Shown: positions 2,738-39,196 of the stretch, in pieces
Position numbering within the stretch: the stretch's first letter is position 1
Layout of the letters: the number at the start of each line of letters is the position of its first letter
From: Escherichia coli
Lineage (GTDB): Bacteria; Pseudomonadota; Gammaproteobacteria; Enterobacterales; Enterobacteriaceae
Assembly (NCBI RefSeq): GCF_041248615.1
Contig: NZ_CP158426.1
DNA: 64,000 bases
Reading direction: 5' to 3' (one strand)
Translations under genes and position numbers: made by a program
The notes under the pieces: generated by a model
The model's input: only the letters and a program-made list of their open reading frames with translations
What the model was told of the DNA's origin: nothing
Databases searched by the model: none

Positions 2738-3227
2738 TCAACTCACTGGGTTAGTTGAATTTACAACCATGCTCAGTATCTCGATAAGCGCAGGGAGATG
2801 ATGCAGTGGTGGGCGGACTGGCTTGATGAAAGTGTGCTGTAATCCTCATATCCAACCTAAGAGATATGCACAATTTTGTGAATAAGATATTGAGAATTAG
2901 CAAAAGTTTTATTTTGCGTATCATCAATTCAGAATACAAAGTCACATGCTAATGTTCTGCATTGGTATCTTTTGCTTATCCATGTCTACATTATCGCCAA
3001 AATAATAGGTTTTGCCTATCAATTATTTGAATTACTTCCATGAAATTATAACGCACTTGTAATTTTTGATTATTTTTACCTCTCAAGTGTTTTGTTTCTT
3101 CTATCTCTTTGTATTTTTAGCGAAAGTATGCCATATTGCATTCTAATATAACGTGGCGTTGTTTCTGTTTAATGATTTAAATAGTTCAACATAATATTTG
3201 CTAACAAATTATATCCAAGCAAATCAT

Positions 3228-4373
3228 ATGATATTATCATTACAATATATTAGAGGAATAGCATCATTACTTGTTGTTTTATTCCACTTCAGATTCTTGC
3301 TAAATGAGCACTACTCTCAGAAAGATTTGGGTGACCTATTATTTGGGAATGGGCTGTCTGGAGTTGATATATTCTTCATATTAAGTGGATTTATCATCGT
3401 ATACTCAACAAGAAAGAAGGAAGTTAATGATACTTTCTCATTCTCAATTAGAAGAATATTTAGAATATACCCATTACTAATCACATGCTGTTGCATGTAT
3501 TACATAATAAACACTCAATTTCTAACCTATGCTACAGTTGAAAACTTTAGAACCTTACTTATTTCCATCATTCCATTAAATATAAACTGGAATGAAGGCG
3601 CTCCATTCTTTGCCTATAATCTTTTGTACCCGGCCTGGACGATAACATATGAAATTGGTTTCTATGTTTTTTTCGGGGTATCAATGTCTATTTCGCATAA
3701 ATACAGAACAATTATCTGTTCTGTTTTTATAATCATGGTGGTCTCATTTACACAATACTATGTAAATGGAAATATATCATTTTCAGGTGATGTTAGTGCA
3801 GGGTTATTTACAGATAACTGGTTATTAGGATATACAAATGTTATTACATCTCCAATGATGTATGAATTCGTTATTGGGATGTTTCTTTCTGAAATATTTA
3901 CAAACATCAACGAAAGCAAAAGTATTAAAAGGATACTTTCAAAGTATTCGCTTCAAATACTATGGATTTCATGTGGTATATCCATAATATTATTCATTAT
4001 CCAGCGACCTTATGGGCATGGATTGAATGGATTTGGGACTATGGCGATGATACTTATTGCATCATCATTAGTATATGAATACTGCAATATAACACCCAAA
4101 ATAAAAATATTTAATTTCCTTGGTGAAATATCATATTCTTTATATCTAATTCACGCCGTGATACTTGCTTTGTTCTTCTATTATAAGGCAGACCTTGCTG
4201 AAATTGGCATAACTGGTGGATTTTCTGTGTTTTTTTCCTTGGTTATTATCTCAATAACTGCATCATATCCAATATATATTCTCATTGAAAAGCCAATGAT
4301 AAATATAGGTAAACGTTTAATTGACAAGAGAAATAAGAGCATTAACAAAAAAGAAACCGAAATAACAGCGTGA
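3228..4373 (+). CDS. integral membrane acyltransferase, family 3 (putative O-antigen/polysaccharide O-acetyltransferase)
   Basis: Very hydrophobic multi-TM protein; N-terminal R/H motif YIRGIASLLVVLFH typical of acyltransferase family 3; ATG at 3228 chosen over the track's TTG at 3198; AT-rich codon usage. Confidence 0.7.
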   Translation: MILSLQYIRGIASLLVVLFHFRFLLNEHYSQKDLGDLLFGNGLSGVDIFFILSGFIIVYSTRKKEVNDTFSFSIRRIFRIYPLLITCCCMYYIINTQFLTYATVENFRTLLISIIPLNINWNEGAPFFAYNLLYPAWTITYEIGFYVFFGVSMSISHKYRTIICSVFIIMVVSFTQYYVNGNISFSGDVSAGLFTDNWLLGYTNVITSPMMYEFVIGMFLSEIFTNINESKSIKRILSKYSLQILWISCGISIILFIIQRPYGHGLNGFGTMAMILIASSLVYEYCNITPKIKIFNFLGEISYSLYLIHAVILALFFYYKADLAEIGITGGFSVFFSLVIISITASYPIYILIEKPMINIGKRLIDKRNKSINKKETEITA

Positions 4374-29841: not shown

Positions 29842-29917
29842 TGGTGCTGGTTAACGGACTTGAACCGCTACCCATTCGCTTACAAGGCGACTGCTCTACC
29901 ATTGGAGCTAAACCAGC
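29842..29917 (-). tRNA. tRNA-like gene, anticodon UGU (Thr) by manual folding
   Basis: 76-nt cloverleaf: acceptor GCTGGTT/AACCAGC, D arm GCTC-CAATGGTA-GAGC, anticodon loop CTTGTAA (U33, A37), T arm AGCGG-TTCAAGT-CCGTT, 3' ACCA; one anticodon-stem mismatch. Confidence 0.55.
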
Positions 29918-29922
29918 ATGTT

Positions 29923-29997
29923 TGGCGGGACAGCGTGGACTCGAACCACGATAAGAAGGTTAACAGCCTTCCGTAATGACCTTTATACGACTGACCC
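29923..29997 (-). tRNA. tRNA-like gene, anticodon GUU (Asn), possibly degenerate
   Basis: Anticodon arm GAAGG-CTGTTAA-CCTTC and T arm CGTGG-TTCGAGT-CCACG are perfect; acceptor stem has one mismatch and the D stem is short. Confidence 0.45.
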
Positions 29998-33116: not shown

Positions 33117-33389
33117 TTAACTCCATATACCGCCAATACCCGTTTCATCGCGGCACTCCTTAAAAATTAGGTTCGTGCTCATCTTTCCTTCCCGTTCTTC
33201 CTTGGTAGCAAACCGGTAATACACCGTTCGCCAGACCTTACCTTCGATAACCAGAAGACCTGCCCGTGCCATTTTAGCCGCGGCCTGATTTATGCTGGTT
33301 ACTGTTGCGCCTGTTAGCGCGGCAACGTCCGGCGCACAGAAGCTATTATGCGTCCCCAGGTAATGAATAATTGCCTCTTTGCCCGTCAT
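33117..33389 (-). CDS. ren: Ren exclusion-protection protein
   Basis: 90-aa ORF immediately downstream of P; sequence recalled as lambda Ren-like; true start may be slightly upstream. Confidence 0.75.
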   Translation of the reverse strand: MTGKEAIIHYLGTHNSFCAPDVAALTGATVTSINQAAAKMARAGLLVIEGKVWRTVYYRFATKEEREGKMSTNLIFKECRDETGIGGIWS

Positions 33390-34087
33390 ACACTTGCTCC
33401 TTTCAGTCCGAACTTAGCTTTGAGTTCTGCGATCTTCGCCAGAGCCTGTGCACGATTTAGAGGTCTACCGCCCATAACAGGAAGTTGTTTTACTGGTTCA
33501 GGTATCGTCTCACCACGGTTAATTCGCGCTGTCATACAGGTCAGTTCATCGGCAGCCTTGCGCCGTAATTCCGCGTCAGTCAGCGCATTGGCCCGCATGT
33601 TCTGGTACAAGTTGGTAACCAACCAGTAATGCGCGTTCGATTTCCACGGATAAGACTCTGCATCCGGATACAGGCCACGCTTCCGGCAATACTCGTAAAC
33701 CATATCAACCAGCTCGCTGACGTTTGGCAGCCCGGCGTTAACGGATGCTTCTTCCCGGCACCAGGCGACAAACTGCCCGGGTGATGGCAGGAATGGTCGA
33801 TTCTGCCGACGGGCTACGCGCATTCCTGCGTTAACCTGTTCCATTGTGGTGATCCCGTTTTCCCGGAAAGCCAGAACCCACTGGCGGCGGATTTCGTTCA
33901 GTTCATTCTGGTCACGGTTAGCCAGGCTCGCCGGGAAAGTTGCCAGTAACTGGCTGAACACACCGTTGATGATCTGCGCTACCTGCTGTACCTGCGGCTT
34001 TTCGTCGTACTGTTCCGGCATGTTGTTGGCGATCCGACGCATCTGCTCACGGTCAAAGTTAACCATCTGTGCGGCGATGTTTTTCAT
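33386..34087 (-). CDS. P: replication protein P (DnaB helicase loader)
   Basis: 233 aa MKNIAAQMVNFDREQMRRIANNMPEQYDEKPQVQQ..., lambda P-like. Confidence 0.9.
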   Translation of the reverse strand: MKNIAAQMVNFDREQMRRIANNMPEQYDEKPQVQQVAQIINGVFSQLLATFPASLANRDQNELNEIRRQWVLAFRENGITTMEQVNAGMRVARRQNRPFLPSPGQFVAWCREEASVNAGLPNVSELVDMVYEYCRKRGLYPDAESYPWKSNAHYWLVTNLYQNMRANALTDAELRRKAADELTCMTARINRGETIPEPVKQLPVMGGRPLNRAQALAKIAELKAKFGLKGASV

Positions 34088-34983
34088 AAATCCACCCCGT
34101 AAATCCAGTCAGTGTTTGTCAGGTCGAGTTTTGGTTTGCTGGCTATCATGCCTGCCTGTTGCTTGTTACGGTTGATTTCGAGCTGGGTCCACTTGTCGCG
34201 GAGTTTGGCCGGACTCAGCACGTTACCGGACCAGAAGTTGTCCTGGCATGCCCAGCGGAACAGTACACACATATCGCGGTGGTTACGTCCGTCACGTTCA
34301 CGCATCAGGCGGATATCGTTAGCCCACCCTGCAAAATTCGGTTTTCTGGCTGATGGCGCGATGGTCTTCACCATGTCAAACATCCACTCTGCGGCGGTCA
34401 GGTCTTCTGCTGTCCCCCACTTGCTGCCGCTCTGAATTGCAGCATCCGGTTTCACCACAGGAAGATCGTTTTCTGGCTGGTCAGAGGATTCGCCAGAATT
34501 CTCGGACGAATAATCTTTTCTTTTTTCTTTTGTAATAGTGTCTTTTGTGTCCCTCTGTTTTGAGGGATAGCAATCCCCCAATTTGAGGGATGTTTTATCC
34601 CTCGTTTTAGGGGATTTTCCCTCGTTTTGAGGGATACACCATTCTGAGATGTTTTTATTTGGTCCAAACATGCCGCCTTGCTGCTTGATAATATTCATTC
34701 TGACGAGTTCTAACTTGGCTTCATTGCACCGTTTGACAGGTAACTTTGTAATCTCGCTAAGTTGAGAATCGGTGATTCTGTCCATTGGTTTATTCCACCC
34801 ATAGGTTTTACGCAGAATGGCAAGCAGCACTTTAAACTGTCGCTTGGTCAGATCTGCGCCTGAATAAGCCTCAAGCAGCATATTTGATAGTCTGGCGTAA
34901 CCATCATCGAGATCTGCCACATTACGCTCCTGTCCGGCAAAGTTACCTCTGCCGAAGTTGAGTATTTTTGCTGTATTTGTCAT
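34084..34983 (-). CDS. O: replication initiator O
   Basis: 299 aa from ATG at 34983, MTNTAKILNFGRGNFAGQERNVADLDDGYARLS...; contains the iteron array. Confidence 0.9.
   Translation of the reverse strand: MTNTAKILNFGRGNFAGQERNVADLDDGYARLSNMLLEAYSGADLTKRQFKVLLAILRKTYGWNKPMDRITDSQLSEITKLPVKRCNEAKLELVRMNIIKQQGGMFGPNKNISEWCIPQNEGKSPKTRDKTSLKLGDCYPSKQRDTKDTITKEKRKDYSSENSGESSDQPENDLPVVKPDAAIQSGSKWGTAEDLTAAEWMFDMVKTIAPSARKPNFAGWANDIRLMRERDGRNHRDMCVLFRWACQDNFWSGNVLSPAKLRDKWTQLEINRNKQQAGMIASKPKLDLTNTDWIYGVDL
34550..34635. repeat. ori-lambda iterons (four ~19-bp direct repeats) inside O, next to an AT-rich tract
   Basis: Four repeats of the form TCCCTC-N-GAGGGAT; adjacent AT-rich tract 34500..34549. 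Confidence 0.75.
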
Positions 34984-35017
34984 AATGACTCCTGTGGATT
35001 GATCCAGTCTTTCTACA

Positions 35018-35296
35018 TCAGGCCTCAAAACTGTTGCAGCAGTCTTGAGGCTTTTCTTTTGTCAGCACCATGGCTACTTTCTTTGCTAGCTTTGCTAATT
35101 CCTCGTCTTCAACACCCCACTCCAGCACAGCCAGAAGCATGGCCATCTTTGGGATAAAGCTGTCTTTCCATCGCGAAATTTGCGATTCATTAATCCCTAA
35201 TGCATCAGCAACCTTTCGCTGACCACGTACAGCAATTCGATTCAGGATGTTGCTTGTGATTGCATTCGCTTTCTTGCGAGTACTTGTAAGTTGCAT
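35018..35296 (-). CDS. cII: CII transcriptional activator
   Basis: 92 aa from ATG at 35296 with RBS AAGGAAA; HTH ...ALGINESQISRWKDSFIPKMAMLLAVLEWGV resembles lambda CII. Confidence 0.75.
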   Translation of the reverse strand: MQLTSTRKKANAITSNILNRIAVRGQRKVADALGINESQISRWKDSFIPKMAMLLAVLEWGVEDEELAKLAKKVAMVLTKEKPQDCCNSFEA

Positions 35297-35352
35297 ATGT
35301 AAGTATTTCCTTAACAAATAAGAAGTTATACGCACCAACTGATGCGCGTTGT

Positions 35353-35398
35353 ATTCCCGCATTTCGGCGGGAATAAGGACCATGACTGTTAAAGAGCA
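35353..35398 (-). promoter_or_regulatory. nutR (boxA plus boxB hairpin)
   Basis: Reverse strand TGCTCTTTAACA (boxA-like) then hairpin TTCCCGCCGAAATGCGGGAA; same boxB sequence as nutL. Confidence 0.6.
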
Positions 35399-35404
35399 AT
35401 TTGC

Positions 35405-35590
35405 TTATGCCGCTTTGCGATAAGCACTTTCTTGATACTTCAGGGCGCCAGCTGTAACGACTTCCAGTCGATAGGCGTCTTTCTCTGGGATGACTTCCTT
35501 CCACTGAGAAACTGCTGCATCGCTAATGCCTAACGCTTTAGCTACCGCACGCTGGGTTCCGAAGTGGTCGATAACATCTTTCTTGTACAT
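35405..35590 (-). CDS. cro: Cro repressor
   Basis: 61 aa with HTH ...QRAVAKALGISDAAVSQW...; divergent from cI across the operator region. Confidence 0.7.
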   Translation of the reverse strand: MYKKDVIDHFGTQRAVAKALGISDAAVSQWKEVIPEKDAYRLEVVTAGALKYQESAYRKAA

Positions 35591-35670
35591 AGACTCGCTC
35601 CGAAATTAAAGAACACTTAAATTATCTATCAAAGGAATCTTAAGTCAAGTTTATTTAAGATGTCTTAACT
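35591..35670. promoter_or_regulatory. OR operator region with pR and pRM
   Basis: TTAA-centred inverted repeats (ATCTTAAGT...ATTTAAGAT); reverse-strand -35 TTGACT (35643..35648) and -10 ATAATT (35620..35625) with 17-bp spacing, upstream of cro. Confidence 0.6.
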
Positions 35671-36321
35671 ATGAATACACAACTGATGGGTGAGCGTATT
35701 CGCGCTCGCAGAAAAGAACTTAAGATTAGGCAGGCTGCCCTTGGCAAGATGGTTGGCGTGTCTAATGTTGCTATTTCCCAATGGGAGCGTTCTGAAACTG
35801 AGCCCAATGGCGAAAACCTATTGGCTTTAGCCAAGGCTTTACAGTGCTCCCCTGATTACTTGTTGAAAGGAGAAGATAGTCTTTCAAACATTGCCTATCA
35901 CAGCAGGCATGATCCAAGAGGTTCGTATCCTCTAATTAGTTGGGTAAGCGCAGGATGTTGGATGGAAGCTGTAGAGCCATATCATAAGCGTGCAATAGAT
36001 AACTGGTACGATACAACCGTAGATTGTTCAGAAGATTCGTTTTGGCTGGACGTAAAGGGTGATTCGATGACGGCTCCAGCCGGTCTTAGCATCCCGGAAG
36101 GGATGATAATACTAGTCGATCCTGAAGTAGAACCTCGTAATGGGAAGCTGGTAGTGGCAAAGCTCGAAGGAGAAAACGAGGCAACTTTCAAGAAGTTAGT
36201 TATTGATGCTGGCAGAAGGTTTCTAAAACCACTTAACCCACAATATCCGATGATTGAGATCAACGGGAACTGCAAAATCATCGGTGTAGTTGTCGATGCA
36301 AAAATAGCAAACCTTCCATAA
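35671..36321 (+). CDS. cI: CI repressor (HTH plus S24 LexA-like autopeptidase domain)
   Basis: 216 aa; N-terminal HTH ...QAALGKMVGVSNVAISQWER...; C-terminal domain ...GDSMTAPAGLSIPEGMIILVD...KIIGVVV resembles the 434/21-type repressor. Confidence 0.85.
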   Translation: MNTQLMGERIRARRKELKIRQAALGKMVGVSNVAISQWERSETEPNGENLLALAKALQCSPDYLLKGEDSLSNIAYHSRHDPRGSYPLISWVSAGCWMEAVEPYHKRAIDNWYDTTVDCSEDSFWLDVKGDSMTAPAGLSIPEGMIILVDPEVEPRNGKLVVAKLEGENEATFKKLVIDAGRRFLKPLNPQYPMIEINGNCKIIGVVVDAKIANLP

Positions 36322-36345
36322 GGGGCATTCGCCCCTTTTTTTCTT
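36321..36345 (+). terminator. rho-independent terminator after cI
   Basis: Hairpin AGGGGCATTCGCCCCT followed by TTTTTTT, overlapping the cI stop. Confidence 0.55.
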
Positions 36346-36365
36346 TCCTTTAAAAATCAAAGCAA

Positions 36366-36447
36366 AACTTAAACTTCGCAATAAAATTTAAGTTTTCTTC
36401 AAAAACACTCTTGACCAATAATTAAAGAAATCTTAAATTTAAGTCAT
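36366..36447. promoter_or_regulatory. OL operator region with pL
   Basis: Inverted repeats AAACTTAAA...TTTAAGTTT and perfect palindrome CTTAAATTTAAG; -35 TTGACC (36411..36416) and -10 TAAATT (36434..36439), 17-bp spacing, directed toward N. Confidence 0.55.
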
Positions 36448-36484
36448 CAGCAGGACGCTGGTAGCCAAACGGAACAGATTGGCA

Positions 36485-36527
36485 GGCTCTTTAACATTGA
36501 TGGGATTGTCCCGCCGAAATGCGGGAA
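36485..36527 (+). promoter_or_regulatory. nutL (boxA plus boxB hairpin)
   Basis: GCTCTTTAACA then hairpin TCCCGCCGAAATGCGGGA, upstream of N. Confidence 0.6.
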
Positions 36528-36633
36528 CCAAAGAGTAGTTGGCTTTGGGGTGACGTGAAGTGCAGCTGCACGACGGCAACCGGAAGATAAGCACCCGGCG
36601 CGTCACCGCCAAAGTCAATCATCGGAGGTCAAC

Positions 36634-36933
36634 ATGGCAGTAGTCATTACATATCTGGCTGACGATAACGCCAGAAATCGCCGCAGAGCACGCAGACAGG
36701 CTCAACGTGAACAGGCAATGCAAGAACAGCGACTGGCGCGAAAGATTGCGCTAAAGCTCTCTGGTTGCGTCAGAGCAGATAAAGCAGCATCACTCGGAAG
36801 CCTTCGCTGCAAGAAGGCAGAAGAGGTCGAGAGTAAACGGAATCGTATTTACTACCGCAAGCCACGCAGTGAAATGGGTGTGACTTGTGTTGGTCGCCAG
36901 AAAATGAAATTAGGCAGTAAGCCACTTATTTGA
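36634..36933 (+). CDS. N: antiterminator N (phage 21-like)
   Basis: 99 aa with N-terminal arginine-rich motif NARNRRRARRQAQRE and C-terminus ...YYRKPRSEMGVTCVGRQKMKLGSKPLI resembling N proteins. Confidence 0.75.
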   Translation: MAVVITYLADDNARNRRRARRQAQREQAMQEQRLARKIALKLSGCVRADKAASLGSLRCKKAEEVESKRNRIYYRKPRSEMGVTCVGRQKMKLGSKPLI

Positions 36934-36944
36934 GAGGAATTAAT

Positions 36945-37568
36945 ATGTCATCAATCCGCTTAACTACGAGAATGAAAGAGGAAATCGCTCGTAACGCTTT
37001 AATTAAGTCTGGGGTTTTCACTGAACTTGAAGAAGTAACAAAGTTAAAGAACCAGCTTGCACTTGACGCCAGAGTTATTGCGTTTGGCGGTAAAAAGAAA
37101 ACTGAGGAAGTGGATCAGTTATCATCCAAGTTGGTAGCTATAAGTGAAGAACTTGAAAAGATGGGATGTTCATTTTACTCATACGATGTTCGTTCTACTT
37201 CAATTTATCTGACTGTATCTGGCAGAAGGGTTGGATGGCTTTCATATGGGAAAGACGGCAACGGCGAAGATATATTGCTCCCTGCTCCGAACAAAGATAA
37301 ATGCATGTTTAGCGCAGAACACGAAATAACAAAAAGGTTTGATGAAATCTGCGCATTGCAACAAAAACTTGAAGCCAAGAAAAAGGATATCGAATCAAAT
37401 GTATGGGCTGCTTTGAACTCAGTCACAACAGTTAAGCGACTTATTGAAGTTTGGCCTGAAAGCAAAGAGTTGCTACCAAAAGAAGCAGATAAAGCAAGTA
37501 CAGCACTTCCTGCTTTACGGGTAGAAGATTTGAATAAGATGATTGGACTTCCTTCCGAGGCCGCATAG
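36945..37568 (+). CDS. hypothetical protein (207 aa) immediately downstream of N
   Basis: ATG at 36945 with RBS GAGAGGA; no motif I can assign; followed by a terminator. Confidence 0.5.
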   Translation: MSSIRLTTRMKEEIARNALIKSGVFTELEEVTKLKNQLALDARVIAFGGKKKTEEVDQLSSKLVAISEELEKMGCSFYSYDVRSTSIYLTVSGRRVGWLSYGKDGNGEDILLPAPNKDKCMFSAEHEITKRFDEICALQQKLEAKKKDIESNVWAALNSVTTVKRLIEVWPESKELLPKEADKASTALPALRVEDLNKMIGLPSEAA

Positions 37569-39049: not shown

Positions 39050-39196
39050 ATGATTTACGCAATCGCGGGAGGCGCTCGCATGGGTGCCTTCCAACTAAAT
39101 GAATCTTTACTTGAACGAATCACCCGTAAATTACGTGACGGATGGAAACGCCTTATCGACATACTTAATCAGCCAGGAGTCCCCAAAAATGGATAA
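39050..39196 (+). CDS. small hypothetical protein (48 aa)
   Basis: ATG at 39050 with RBS AAGGAACC; below the ORF-track length cutoff. Confidence 0.3.
   Translation: MIYAIAGGARMGAFQLNESLLERITRKLRDGWKRLIDILNQPGVPKNG

Follow-up and report, generated by a model that had tools for sequence, protein, structure and literature searches.

Gene content of the immunity region

The window, that is, the whole 64-kb stretch of Escherichia coli DNA analysed here, contains a lambdoid immunity region with the order cII-nutR-cro-OR-cI-terminator-OL/pL-nutL-N, and all of the features listed in the original prediction were found in the sequence. The repressor gene, cI (35671-36321, plus strand), encodes a LexA-like protein of 216 residues with an N-terminal HTH_3 domain (Pfam, E = 6e-17) and a self-cleaving C-terminal domain of the S24 type (Peptidase_S24, E = 6e-31). 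This protein shows 99% identity to the cI repressor of phage 21 (imm21; GenBank OL657228) and 93% identity to C2 of P22. Residues 1-105, which include the DNA-binding domain, are identical to those of phage 21, and the three differences from that repressor (K106R, R183K, and I212L) are conservative and located outside the DNA-binding domain. The structures 1ADR and 2R1J match cI with E values of 1e-37 to 1e-39, and the N-terminal domain differs by 2 substitutions in 68 residues from the chains in 1ADR, 2R1J, and 3JXB, the last two being P22 C2 operator co-crystals.

The gene transcribed divergently from the repressor (35405-35590, minus strand) encodes an all-helical P22-type Cro of 61 residues (Pfam P22_Cro, E = 8.7e-28), with identities of 97% to the protein of phage 21, 95% to that of P22, and 100% to that of N7. 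It is followed by cII (35018-35296, minus strand), the product of which is a lysogeny-establishment activator similar to C1 of P22 (Pfam Phage_CII, E = 2.5e-44); a RefSeq CDS occupies the same position in an identical genome. The DNA of cII is nearer to that of P22 and N7 than to that of phage 21, with which it has only 30-50% identity. A putative cII-binding site of pRE, TTGCGAGTACTTGT (35275-35288, plus strand), lies within the 5' end of cII, and it was assigned from its pattern (TTGY-N6-TTGY) and its position, both as annotated in phage 21 and P22. The prophage also carries lambda-type O and P genes and a tail module that includes a baseplate; in RefSeq, ren and a phosphatase gene, both nearby in the prophage, are frameshifted.

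On the other side of the repressor gene, the end of cI (36321) falls within a G+C-rich hairpin (36320-36345, plus strand; −12.2 kcal/mol, z = −2.85) that is followed by a T-run and represents the intrinsic terminator of the cI transcript, an element that is also annotated in phage 21. The first operator, OL3, begins 36 bp past the cI stop codon. As had been proposed, cI is followed by the terminator and pL with no gene before N: there are no plus-strand open reading frames from the cI stop codon to pL, and those between pL and N are just two, of 23 and 27 amino acids. In lambda, rexA and rexB are located after cI. A cassette of this type, with two genes on the cI strand between cI and OL/pL, was absent from this region, as the original prediction stated, and no Rex protein was found among the RefSeq annotations of the prophage. 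A lack of rex is the usual condition in immunity regions of this type, those of phages 21 and P22 included.

Operators and promoters

The operators were evaluated with a weight matrix built from the six operators of P22 alone, which was used to score 63,983 positions in the 64 kb. The five best scores corresponded to OR1, OR2, OR3, OL1, and OL2, all of them in the intergenic stretches by cI. In the cro-cI interval, OR1 (ATTAAAGAACACTTAAAT, 35605-35622; score 20.8, rank 2) is the cro-proximal site, overlaps the −10 element and the start of pR, and is identical in phage 21 and P22; OR2 (ATCAAAGGAATCTTAAGT, 35628-35645; score 16.0, rank 5) is one nucleotide off the phage 21 site (ACCAAAGGAATCTTAAGT); and OR3 (ATTTAAGATGTCTTAACT, 35653-35670; score 20.8, rank 3) abuts the cI start codon, is the same as in phage 21, and is one nucleotide from the P22 site. 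Along the 85 positions of the OR DNA, 2 differ from phage 21. Past cI, OL1 (ATTAAAGAAATCTTAAAT, 36421-36438), which aligns with the annotated OL1 of phage 21 and lies between the −35 and −10 elements of pL, obtained the top score in the window (23.1, versus 21.0 for OL1 of phage 21), and OL2 (ATTTAAGTTTTCTTCAAA, 36386-36403; score 18.8, rank 4) is identical to OL2 of P22. The remaining site, OL3 (TCAAAGCAAAACTTAAAC, 36357-36374), is weak, with one good half-site and a score of only 3.4, and was placed by alignment to the annotated OL3 of phage 21 and P22, in which this operator is equally weak.

The operator unit is an 18-bp sequence, ATTTAAG-N4-CTTAAAT, whose 4 central bp are not contacted; it is present three times at OR and three times at OL, where it overlaps pR/pRM and pL, respectively. 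Measured between centres, the OR sites are 23 and 25 bp apart and the OL sites 35 and 29 bp apart, and the positions match those in phages 21 and P22. A simpler search for TWAAG-N4-CTTWA, allowing at most one mismatch, gave 13 matches in the window (6.5 ± 2.5 expected), 6 of which were located in the two short intergenic stretches adjoining cI. Another matrix match, at 39094-39111, was rejected as an extra operator given its chance-level score (0.85 such matches expected per shuffle). The operators had been predicted to be distinct from those of lambda, and this was indeed the case: the 17-bp lambda operators are of unrelated sequence, and no lambda-type half-site was present in either intergenic region. 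The 434-type motif ACAA-N6-TTGT was not found anywhere in the 64-kb window.

A promoter scan identified pR (TTGACT-16-GATAAT, 35621-35648, minus strand; 10 of 12 matches), which coincides with the transferred position of the P22 early-right promoter, and pL (TTGACC-17-TAAATT, 36411-36439, plus strand). The location of pRM (35633-35661, plus strand) was inferred by transferring the P22 annotation coordinates over a gap-free alignment; the consensus promoter scan did not detect it, as expected for an activator-dependent promoter. Its transcript would start near 35667, 4 nt 5' of the AUG, and the pL transcript probably starts at 36446, 8 nt past OL1, according to the annotations of phage 21 and P22.

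The repeats on both flanks of cI had originally been described as built on CTTAA...TTAAG, including a perfect 12-bp palindrome over the −10 element of pL, and this description implies that the repressor reads these palindromes and that the one at pL is itself an operator. The repeats do exist on both sides; the sequences AAAACTTAAACTT and AAATTTAAGTTTT are 92% complementary, and CTTAAA/TTTAAG pair perfectly. The palindrome, CTTAAATTTAAG (36432-36443), is also present, overlaps TAAATT (36434-36439), and is conserved in phage 21, N7, and CUS-3. However, the register of the repeats is inverted, as each of them links the outer half of one operator to that of the next, and repeats of this kind arise from any row of palindromic operators. 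In the 18-bp sites of the P22 repressor, whose halves read ATTTAAG...CTTAAAT, the contacts fall at positions 2-7 and 12-17 (PMC4267663), the annotated operators of P22 and phage 21 have this same register, and the P22-derived matrix recovers the same sites here. Regarding the 12-mer, it consists of the right half-site of OL1 plus an extra TTAAG that is situated between the −10 and +1 of pL. Its two half-sites adjoin each other, at about 6 bp from centre to centre, so that a HTH dimer suited to 18-bp sites presumably could not span them; for an 18-mer starting at its second half, there is no half-site that would match as its partner; and it is imperfect in P22 (CTTAAATTTTAG) despite the near-identical repressor. 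From these observations, we consider it very improbable that the CTTAA...TTAAG palindromes are what the repressor recognises, and the 12-mer was rejected as a separate operator. With the 18-bp sites as the operators, the extra TTAAG by OL1, which is conserved in the E. coli members of the group but not in P22, could act as a seventh half-site that tunes the repression of pL.

The nut sites and the N antiterminator

Each of the two early leaders contains a boxA followed by a hairpin. In nutR, the boxA GCTCTTTAACA (35387-35397, minus strand), whose core GCTCTTTA is the annotated boxA-R of phage 21, precedes the hairpin AUUCCCGC-CGAAAU-GCGGGAAU (35353-35374, minus strand; core at 35356-35371), with a 9-bp stem and a 6-nt loop. 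In nutL, the same boxA (36486-36496, plus strand), equal to boxA-L of phage 21, precedes the hairpin UCCCGC-CGAAAU-GCGGGA (36509-36526, plus strand; core at 36510-36525), also with a 6-nt loop. The boxA of lambda imm21 has been described as identical to that of the E. coli rrn operons (PMC3177189). The proposal of a common boxB, following a boxA, in nutL and nutR was well founded: the 16-mer CCCGCCGAAATGCGGG (the prophage boxB, also written CCCGCCGAAAUGCGGG; UCCCGCCGAAAUGCGGGA as RNA) has exactly two copies in the 64 kb, at the two cores and on opposite strands, when about 0.03 would be expected by chance, and boxA also has exactly two copies, each 13-15 nt upstream of a hairpin in the direction of transcription. 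The number of boxA copies alone is not significant, as it was reached in 37 of 100 shuffles; it is the placement that counts. These hairpins are unlike the boxB sequences of phage 21 (CTCAACCTAACCGTTGAG in nutL and CACCTCTAACCGGGTG in nutR) and like those of HK620 (GenBank AF335538; Clark et al. 2001). The nutL site is identical to the annotated HK620 nutL over 42 nt, and nutR differs from its HK620 counterpart by one nucleotide in the spacer and one at the 5' end.

The pL operon opens with the gene for the N antiterminator (36634-36933, plus strand; 99 residues), located after pL and nutL; N is a small basic protein that bears an arginine-rich motif at its N-terminus. Overall, the identity of this protein is 98% to N of CUS-3, over the full length, and 69% to N of phage 21. 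The latter value conceals two very different parts, as residues 34-99, comprising the middle and C-terminal portions, are about 95% identical to phage 21 N, whereas residues 1-33 are unrelated to it and contain an HK620-type motif (DNARNRRRARRQAQREQ, identical to that of HK620 N from residue 3 onward). Thus, what this module has in common with the N/nut system of phage 21 is limited to boxA and N residues 34-99. Neither N nor the next four genes had a convincing match to a defence system in PADLOC. In the leader of N there is also a long hairpin (36538-36619, plus strand), conserved with compensatory changes in phage 21, HK620, N7, and P22, which by analogy with lambda is probably an RNase III site.

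Could these hairpins be terminators or chance repeats, and the downstream reading frame something other than N? The reading frame lacks a Pfam family and appears as a 'hypothetical protein' in the RefSeq record of the identical genome; Rfam has no nut or boxB family (its only matches in the window were two tRNAs), and the eight loci with intact nut sites all have the same hairpin sequence, so that covariation gives no evidence. Nevertheless, two identical 16-mers are found 13-15 nt past a consensus boxA, at the canonical positions of the pL and pR transcripts, and neither is followed by a T-run. The reading frame matches PHROG 271, 'anti-termination protein N-like' (E = 8e-36), its similarity to phage 21 N has been described above, and its C-terminal 38 residues match lambda N in the antitermination complex of PDB 6GOV. 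Furthermore, the authors of the HK620 sequence annotated these same sequences as nutL and nutR. This explanation is hardly credible, even less so than that of the palindromic operator, and the assignment as boxB sites and N is favoured.

The HK620-type motif accompanies this boxB at both nutL and nutR in 8 of 8 loci, among which two immunity types are represented; this count comprises the loci with both nut positions, and in mEp213, the ninth locus bearing the motif, the upstream copy is the only one present, in decayed form. The motif and boxB pairs of phage 21 and of P22 are distinct from this one and from each other. No experimental study of the HK620-type pair was found in the literature searched. 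We tentatively suggest, jointly with the idea of the TTAAG half-site, that HK620-type N/boxB is a fourth recognition class after those of lambda, P22, and phage 21, and one that is biochemically uncharacterised; this joint proposal has less than an even chance of being correct. The 6-nt loop CGAAAU could fold into a genuine GNRA tetraloop (GAAA), with a C-U mismatch closing it. The arginine-rich motif (A-R-N-R-R-R-A-R-R-Q-A-Q-R-E-Q-A) resembles that of lambda but has Ala at the position of Trp18. In lambda N, Trp18 is the residue that stacks on the loop.

Relationship to other phages, immunity, and modularity

Taken together, the sequence comparisons indicate, with a probability of about 0.93, that this locus is the lysis-lysogeny switch of a lambdoid prophage inserted at att-lambda, of the imm21 / P22 immC type, combined with an HK620-type N/nut antitermination module. 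The region had been thought to be possibly distinctive, but its repressor, Cro, and OR are those of imm21. The immunity region is a known mosaic, every component of which was previously known.

As in phage 21, OR1-3, the terminator, OL3-1, and pL appear in the same order and with the same spacing, boxA is identical at both nut sites, and the interval between cI and pL has no gene; the boxB sequences, N residues 1-33, and the P22 C1-like cII set the prophage apart from it. The P22 immC region (c2-cro-c1) has the same repressor family, operator type and layout, the same positions of pR, pRM, and pL, and a similar C1, but its gp24 and boxB (GCGCTGACAAAGCGC) constitute a different specificity, and its replication genes are 18 and 12 instead of O and P of the lambda type. 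HK620 shares nutL, nutR, and the arginine-rich motif of N, but it has a 434/L-like cI with 17-bp operators, an extra gene (hkaS) between cI and the terminator, and an N C-terminus of the P22/H-19B type. The same combination is carried by the P22-like E. coli phages CUS-3, N7, JEP4, IME10, and Gally, in which cI, cro, and operators of the imm21/P22 type are joined to HK620-type nut sites; these are, however, short-tailed Lederbergvirus phages, unlike the prophage described here, and the OR and cI N-terminal domain DNA of the prophage is nearer to phage 21 than to them. Lambda is alike in overall logic and gene order: it has a LexA-like cI, three-part OR and OL, pR and pRM in divergent orientation, nut sites with boxA and boxB for N, and a hairpin in the N leader. 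Lambda differs in having a variant boxA, a boxB with a GAAAA/GAAGA pentaloop, and a Cro of a different fold.

By analogy with lambda and P22, cI dimers in the lysogen would occupy OR1/OR2 and OL1/OL2, turning off pR and pL and stimulating pRM, whose almost leaderless transcript would terminate just past cI. Upon activation of RecA in the SOS response, cI would cleave itself at Ala94-Gly95 by means of Ser132 and Lys175, after which Cro would bind at these operators and silence pRM. Transcripts from pL and pR would each expose boxA, a NusB/NusE site of the rrn-consensus type, and the boxB hairpin CCCGC-CGAAAU-GCGGG, to which the arginine-rich motif of N would bind, while its phage 21/lambda-like C-terminus would make RNA polymerase resistant to terminators. 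N should be active on HK620-type nut sites and inactive on those of phage 21.

Because the DNA-binding domain is identical and OR is nearly so, the predicted phenotype of the lysogen is immunity to phage 21 and lambda imm21 with sensitivity to lambda and 434. P22 and phage 21 reportedly share immunity specificity, and their repressors reportedly recognise each other's operators (Botstein and Herskowitz 1974; Poteete et al. 1980); on this basis, immunity to P22 immC hybrids is also predicted. A different possibility is that the operator differences confer a new specificity, heteroimmune to phage 21 and P22. In this regard, OR2 (1 nt) and OL1, OL2, and OL3 (1-4 nt each) do differ from phage 21, and the DNA of OL and of the cI C-terminal domain, 70-88% identical to that of phage 21 with mostly synonymous changes, belongs to another lineage. 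Against this, OR1 and OR3 are identical to those of phage 21, the three substitutions in cI leave the DNA-binding domain intact, and the changed positions in OR2 and OL1-3 agree with the P22 consensus as well as those of phage 21 do, or better, as reflected in the higher score of OL1. A new specificity is thus highly unlikely, and the shared imm21 specificity is preferred; the changes in OL and OR2 may cause small differences in affinity relative to phage 21.

E. coli NRZ14408 carries the stretch from 35300 to 36640 without a single difference (100% identity), and in 102 complete E. coli records the best match to it reaches at least 99% identity; CUS-3, N7, JEP4, and IME10 carry the same combination with approximately 92% DNA identity over this stretch. 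The homology to phage 21 breaks at boxA on both sides, and additional junctions lie within the cI gene, at about 36020-36040, and within N, around codons 34 and 88.

Operators of this type were reportedly sequenced by Poteete et al. in 1980. The recognition of the operator by the P22 repressor is known at atomic resolution. Nut sites of the type found here were already annotated in HK620 in 2001. Even so, hundreds of complete E. coli genomes carry the region with no annotation of its operators or nut sites, and N is a 'hypothetical protein' in RefSeq, which represents an annotation gap. The repressor-operator module of the 21/P22 type is seen with three N-boxB modules, of the P22, 21, and HK620 types, and it is an example of lambdoid modularity in which boxA, universally conserved and dictated by the host, is the exact point where homology breaks on both sides.

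Genetic layout of the immunity region

The immunity region belongs to a lambdoid prophage that is inserted at att-lambda of the E. coli chromosome, with ybhB and ybhC on either side (~2700-44900), and that lies in the orientation opposite to the standard lambda map. On the minus strand are P (33386-34087), O (34084-34986), cII (35018-35296), nutR (~35353-35397) and cro (35405-35590), followed by an OR region of 80 bp (35591-35670, both strands); on the plus strand are cI (35671-36321), its terminator (36320-36345), OL and pL (36357-36446), nutL (36486-36526) and N (36634-36933). The prophage also carries lambda-type int/xis, O/P, nin region and Q, a tail module with baseplate J/gp47 and DUF3383, two acyltransferase-family genes at its ybhB end, and, upstream of the lysis genes, a pair of tRNA genes (Thr and Asn, 29845-29997); ren and a phosphatase gene are frameshifted. 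The segment 35300-36640 is 100% identical to that of E. coli NRZ14408 (NZ_LT599825.1). RefSeq leaves the operators and nut sites without annotation.

All the features listed in the original prediction were found in the window (boxB, boxA, palindrome, terminator and the lack of a long ORF between cI and N). Its interpretation was only partly supported: the operators had been read in the wrong register, and the imm21 character and the HK620 nut sites went unrecognised.

As had been proposed, cI is directly followed by a terminator, whose strong hairpin (−12.2 kcal/mol, z −2.85) contains the cI stop codon, and rex-type genes are missing: we observed no gene between cI and pL and no plus-strand ORF longer than 27 aa between cI and N. 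Since phages 21 and P22 likewise have no gene between cI and pL, the empty slot is the norm for this immunity type; HK620, in contrast, carries hkaS there.

Repressor, promoters and operators

The cI protein is 99% identical to that of phage 21, with three conservative changes, none of them inside the DNA-binding domain, and 93% identical to P22 C2; among the P22 C2 structures that its N-terminal domain matches are the operator co-crystals 2R1J and 3JXB. Cro, a member of the P22_Cro family, shares 97% identity with its phage 21 counterpart, and the OR DNA departs from the phage 21 sequence at two positions out of 85. A recombination junction is present within cI, near 36020-36040: the DNA before it shares 95-100% identity with phage 21, whereas the DNA after it shares 70-88% with phage 21 and 93-100% with N7. 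The protein nevertheless remains 99% identical to phage 21 cI across the junction; given that almost no amino acid changes there, the divergence is synonymous, under strong purifying selection. In the phage 21 record (OL657228), cI is annotated from an internal Met (1874-2446, 190 aa), a start that would cost the protein part of its helix-turn-helix, and translation from the upstream ATG gives a 216-aa protein colinear with P22 C2. The same record (1730-1795) labels the cro-proximal operator OR3 and uses the label OR2 for two sites.

A consensus scan identified pR (TTGACT-16-GATAAT, 35648 to 35621, minus strand) and pL (TTGACC-17-TAAATT, 36411-36439, plus strand), both coinciding with annotated P22 promoters. 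Coordinates transferred from P22 place a putative pRM at ~35633-35661 (plus strand), with its transcript starting near 35667. A TTGC-N6-TTGT motif inside the start of cII (35275-35288) fits the cII-site pattern annotated in phage 21.

Operator positions were transferred from the phage 21 and P22 GenBank annotations, three at OR and three at OL: OR1 (35605-35622, ATTAAAGAACACTTAAAT), OR2 (35628-35645, ATCAAAGGAATCTTAAGT), OR3 (35653-35670, ATTTAAGATGTCTTAACT), OL3 (36357-36374, TCAAAGCAAAACTTAAAC), OL2 (36386-36403, ATTTAAGTTTTCTTCAAA) and OL1 (36421-36438, ATTAAAGAAATCTTAAAT). As an independent test, the whole window was scanned with a symmetric weight matrix built only from the six P22 operators. 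Out of 63,983 positions, OL1, OR1, OR3, OL2 and OR2 scored highest (16-23), and the sixth-best score was at chance level; OL3 scored weakly (3.4), as it does in P22 and phage 21. The twelve half-sites yield the consensus A-T-T-T/A-A-A-G. P22 repressor recognises six rotationally symmetric sites, contacting bases at positions 2-7 and 12-17 and none at 8-11 (Koudelka's work, PMC4267663). Taken together, these contacts, the matrix and the annotated sites identify ATTTAAG-N4-CTTAAAT as the true operator unit. The CTTAA...TTAAG repeats originally taken for operators are real, but they are a by-product of pairing the outward-facing halves of adjacent operators, such as OL3-right with OL2-left or OR2-right with OR3-left.

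The perfect 12-bp palindrome CTTAAATTTAAG (36432-36443) does overlap the pL −10 TAAATT. It consists of the right half of OL1 plus a TTAAG located between −8 and −3 of pL, has no partner half-site, and is kept in phage 21, N7 and CUS-3, with CTTAAATTTTAG as the P22 version. The claim that the operators differ from those of lambda also held, as neither intergenic region contains a lambda-type half-site; the 434-type ACAA-N6-TTGT is absent from the entire window.

HK620-type nut sites and a mosaic N protein

The identical boxB hairpins were confirmed: the 64 kb contain precisely two copies of the 16-mer CCCGCCGAAATGCGGG, one per strand (~0.03 expected by chance). boxA, GCTCTTTAACA, also has two copies, each of which, in the order of transcription, precedes a hairpin by 13-15 nt. 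When folded, each hairpin has a loop of 6 nt; the nutR stem is 9 bp long and the nutL stem 5-6 bp. The boxA (GCTCTTTA...) is the same as that of phage 21, and the boxA of lambda imm21 is that of the E. coli rrn operons (PMC3177189). On the nutL and nutR sides alike, identity to phage 21 breaks down within a few bases past boxA, and the boxB hairpins bear no relation to those of phage 21. The annotated HK620 nutL equals the window nutL over 42 nt, and nutR differs by one nucleotide in the spacer and one at the 5' end.

N is a three-part mosaic that joins an HK620-type arginine-rich motif to a middle part common to phage 21 and HK620 and ends in a phage 21/lambda-type C-terminus, whose final 38 aa align with lambda N of the 6GOV complex. 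Residues 1-33 (MAVVITYLADDNARNRRRARRQAQREQAMQEQ) show no relationship to phage 21 N; residues 34-99, by contrast, are ~95% identical to it. The motif is also present in HK620, HK630, CUS-3, N7, phi296, an Stx2c phage and mEp213. Nine loci carry it; in all eight with both nut positions covered, which span two different immunity types, CCCGCCGAAATGCGGG is found at nutL and nutR. The exception is the ninth, mEp213, which has two N genes in tandem. All that precedes its HK620-type N is a decayed boxB, CCCTCCGAAATGCGGG, with no boxA (1516-1848, 2626-2641 and 3001-3273 for genes and boxB together), an arrangement suggestive of a leftover from a displaced N/nut module. The literature searched yielded no experimental characterisation of the HK620-type motif/boxB pair, which might represent a distinct recognition class.

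RefSeq names N 'hypothetical protein' in an identical genome (21335-21634), and a shorter variant with the same motif in another genome 'transcriptional antitermination N peptide'. Between the nutL boxB and the N ribosome-binding site, the leader (36538-36619, plus strand) forms a long stable hairpin, kept in phage 21, N7, HK620 and P22 with seven pairs changed on both sides; we presume it to be the counterpart of the RNase III-processed N-leader hairpin of lambda. Directly 3' of N, an Nmad5-family gene (36945-37568, plus strand; Pfam PF18757, E 1.5e-71; PHROG 1965) gave no PADLOC match; the product of the Dhillonvirus nmad5 is what the Tmn defence system senses (PMC11846954). In an E. coli prophage 99.9% identical across the immunity region, sieB and ral occupy this slot.

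Predicted behaviour and occurrence

By analogy with the lambda/P22 paradigm, cI dimers on OR1/OR2 and OL1/OL2 would repress pR and pL and stimulate pRM. RecA would stimulate cI to cleave itself at Ala94-Gly95 through Ser132 and Lys175, thereby inducing the prophage, and Cro would then turn off pRM. N would bind boxB on the pL and pR transcripts and, with NusA, NusB, NusE and NusG at boxA, would allow RNA polymerase to pass terminators. The lysogen is predicted to be immune to phage 21 and lambda imm21 and sensitive to lambda and 434, with an N specificity of the HK620 type; immunity to P22 immC hybrids is presumably also to be expected.

In 102 complete E. coli records the best match to 35300-36640 reaches 99% identity or more, and at least 80% of this segment is covered in 488 genomes. 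The same combination is present in the published phages CUS-3, N7, JEP4 and IME10. Since every component has already been described, the finding is already known, and this immunity region is an ordinary one.
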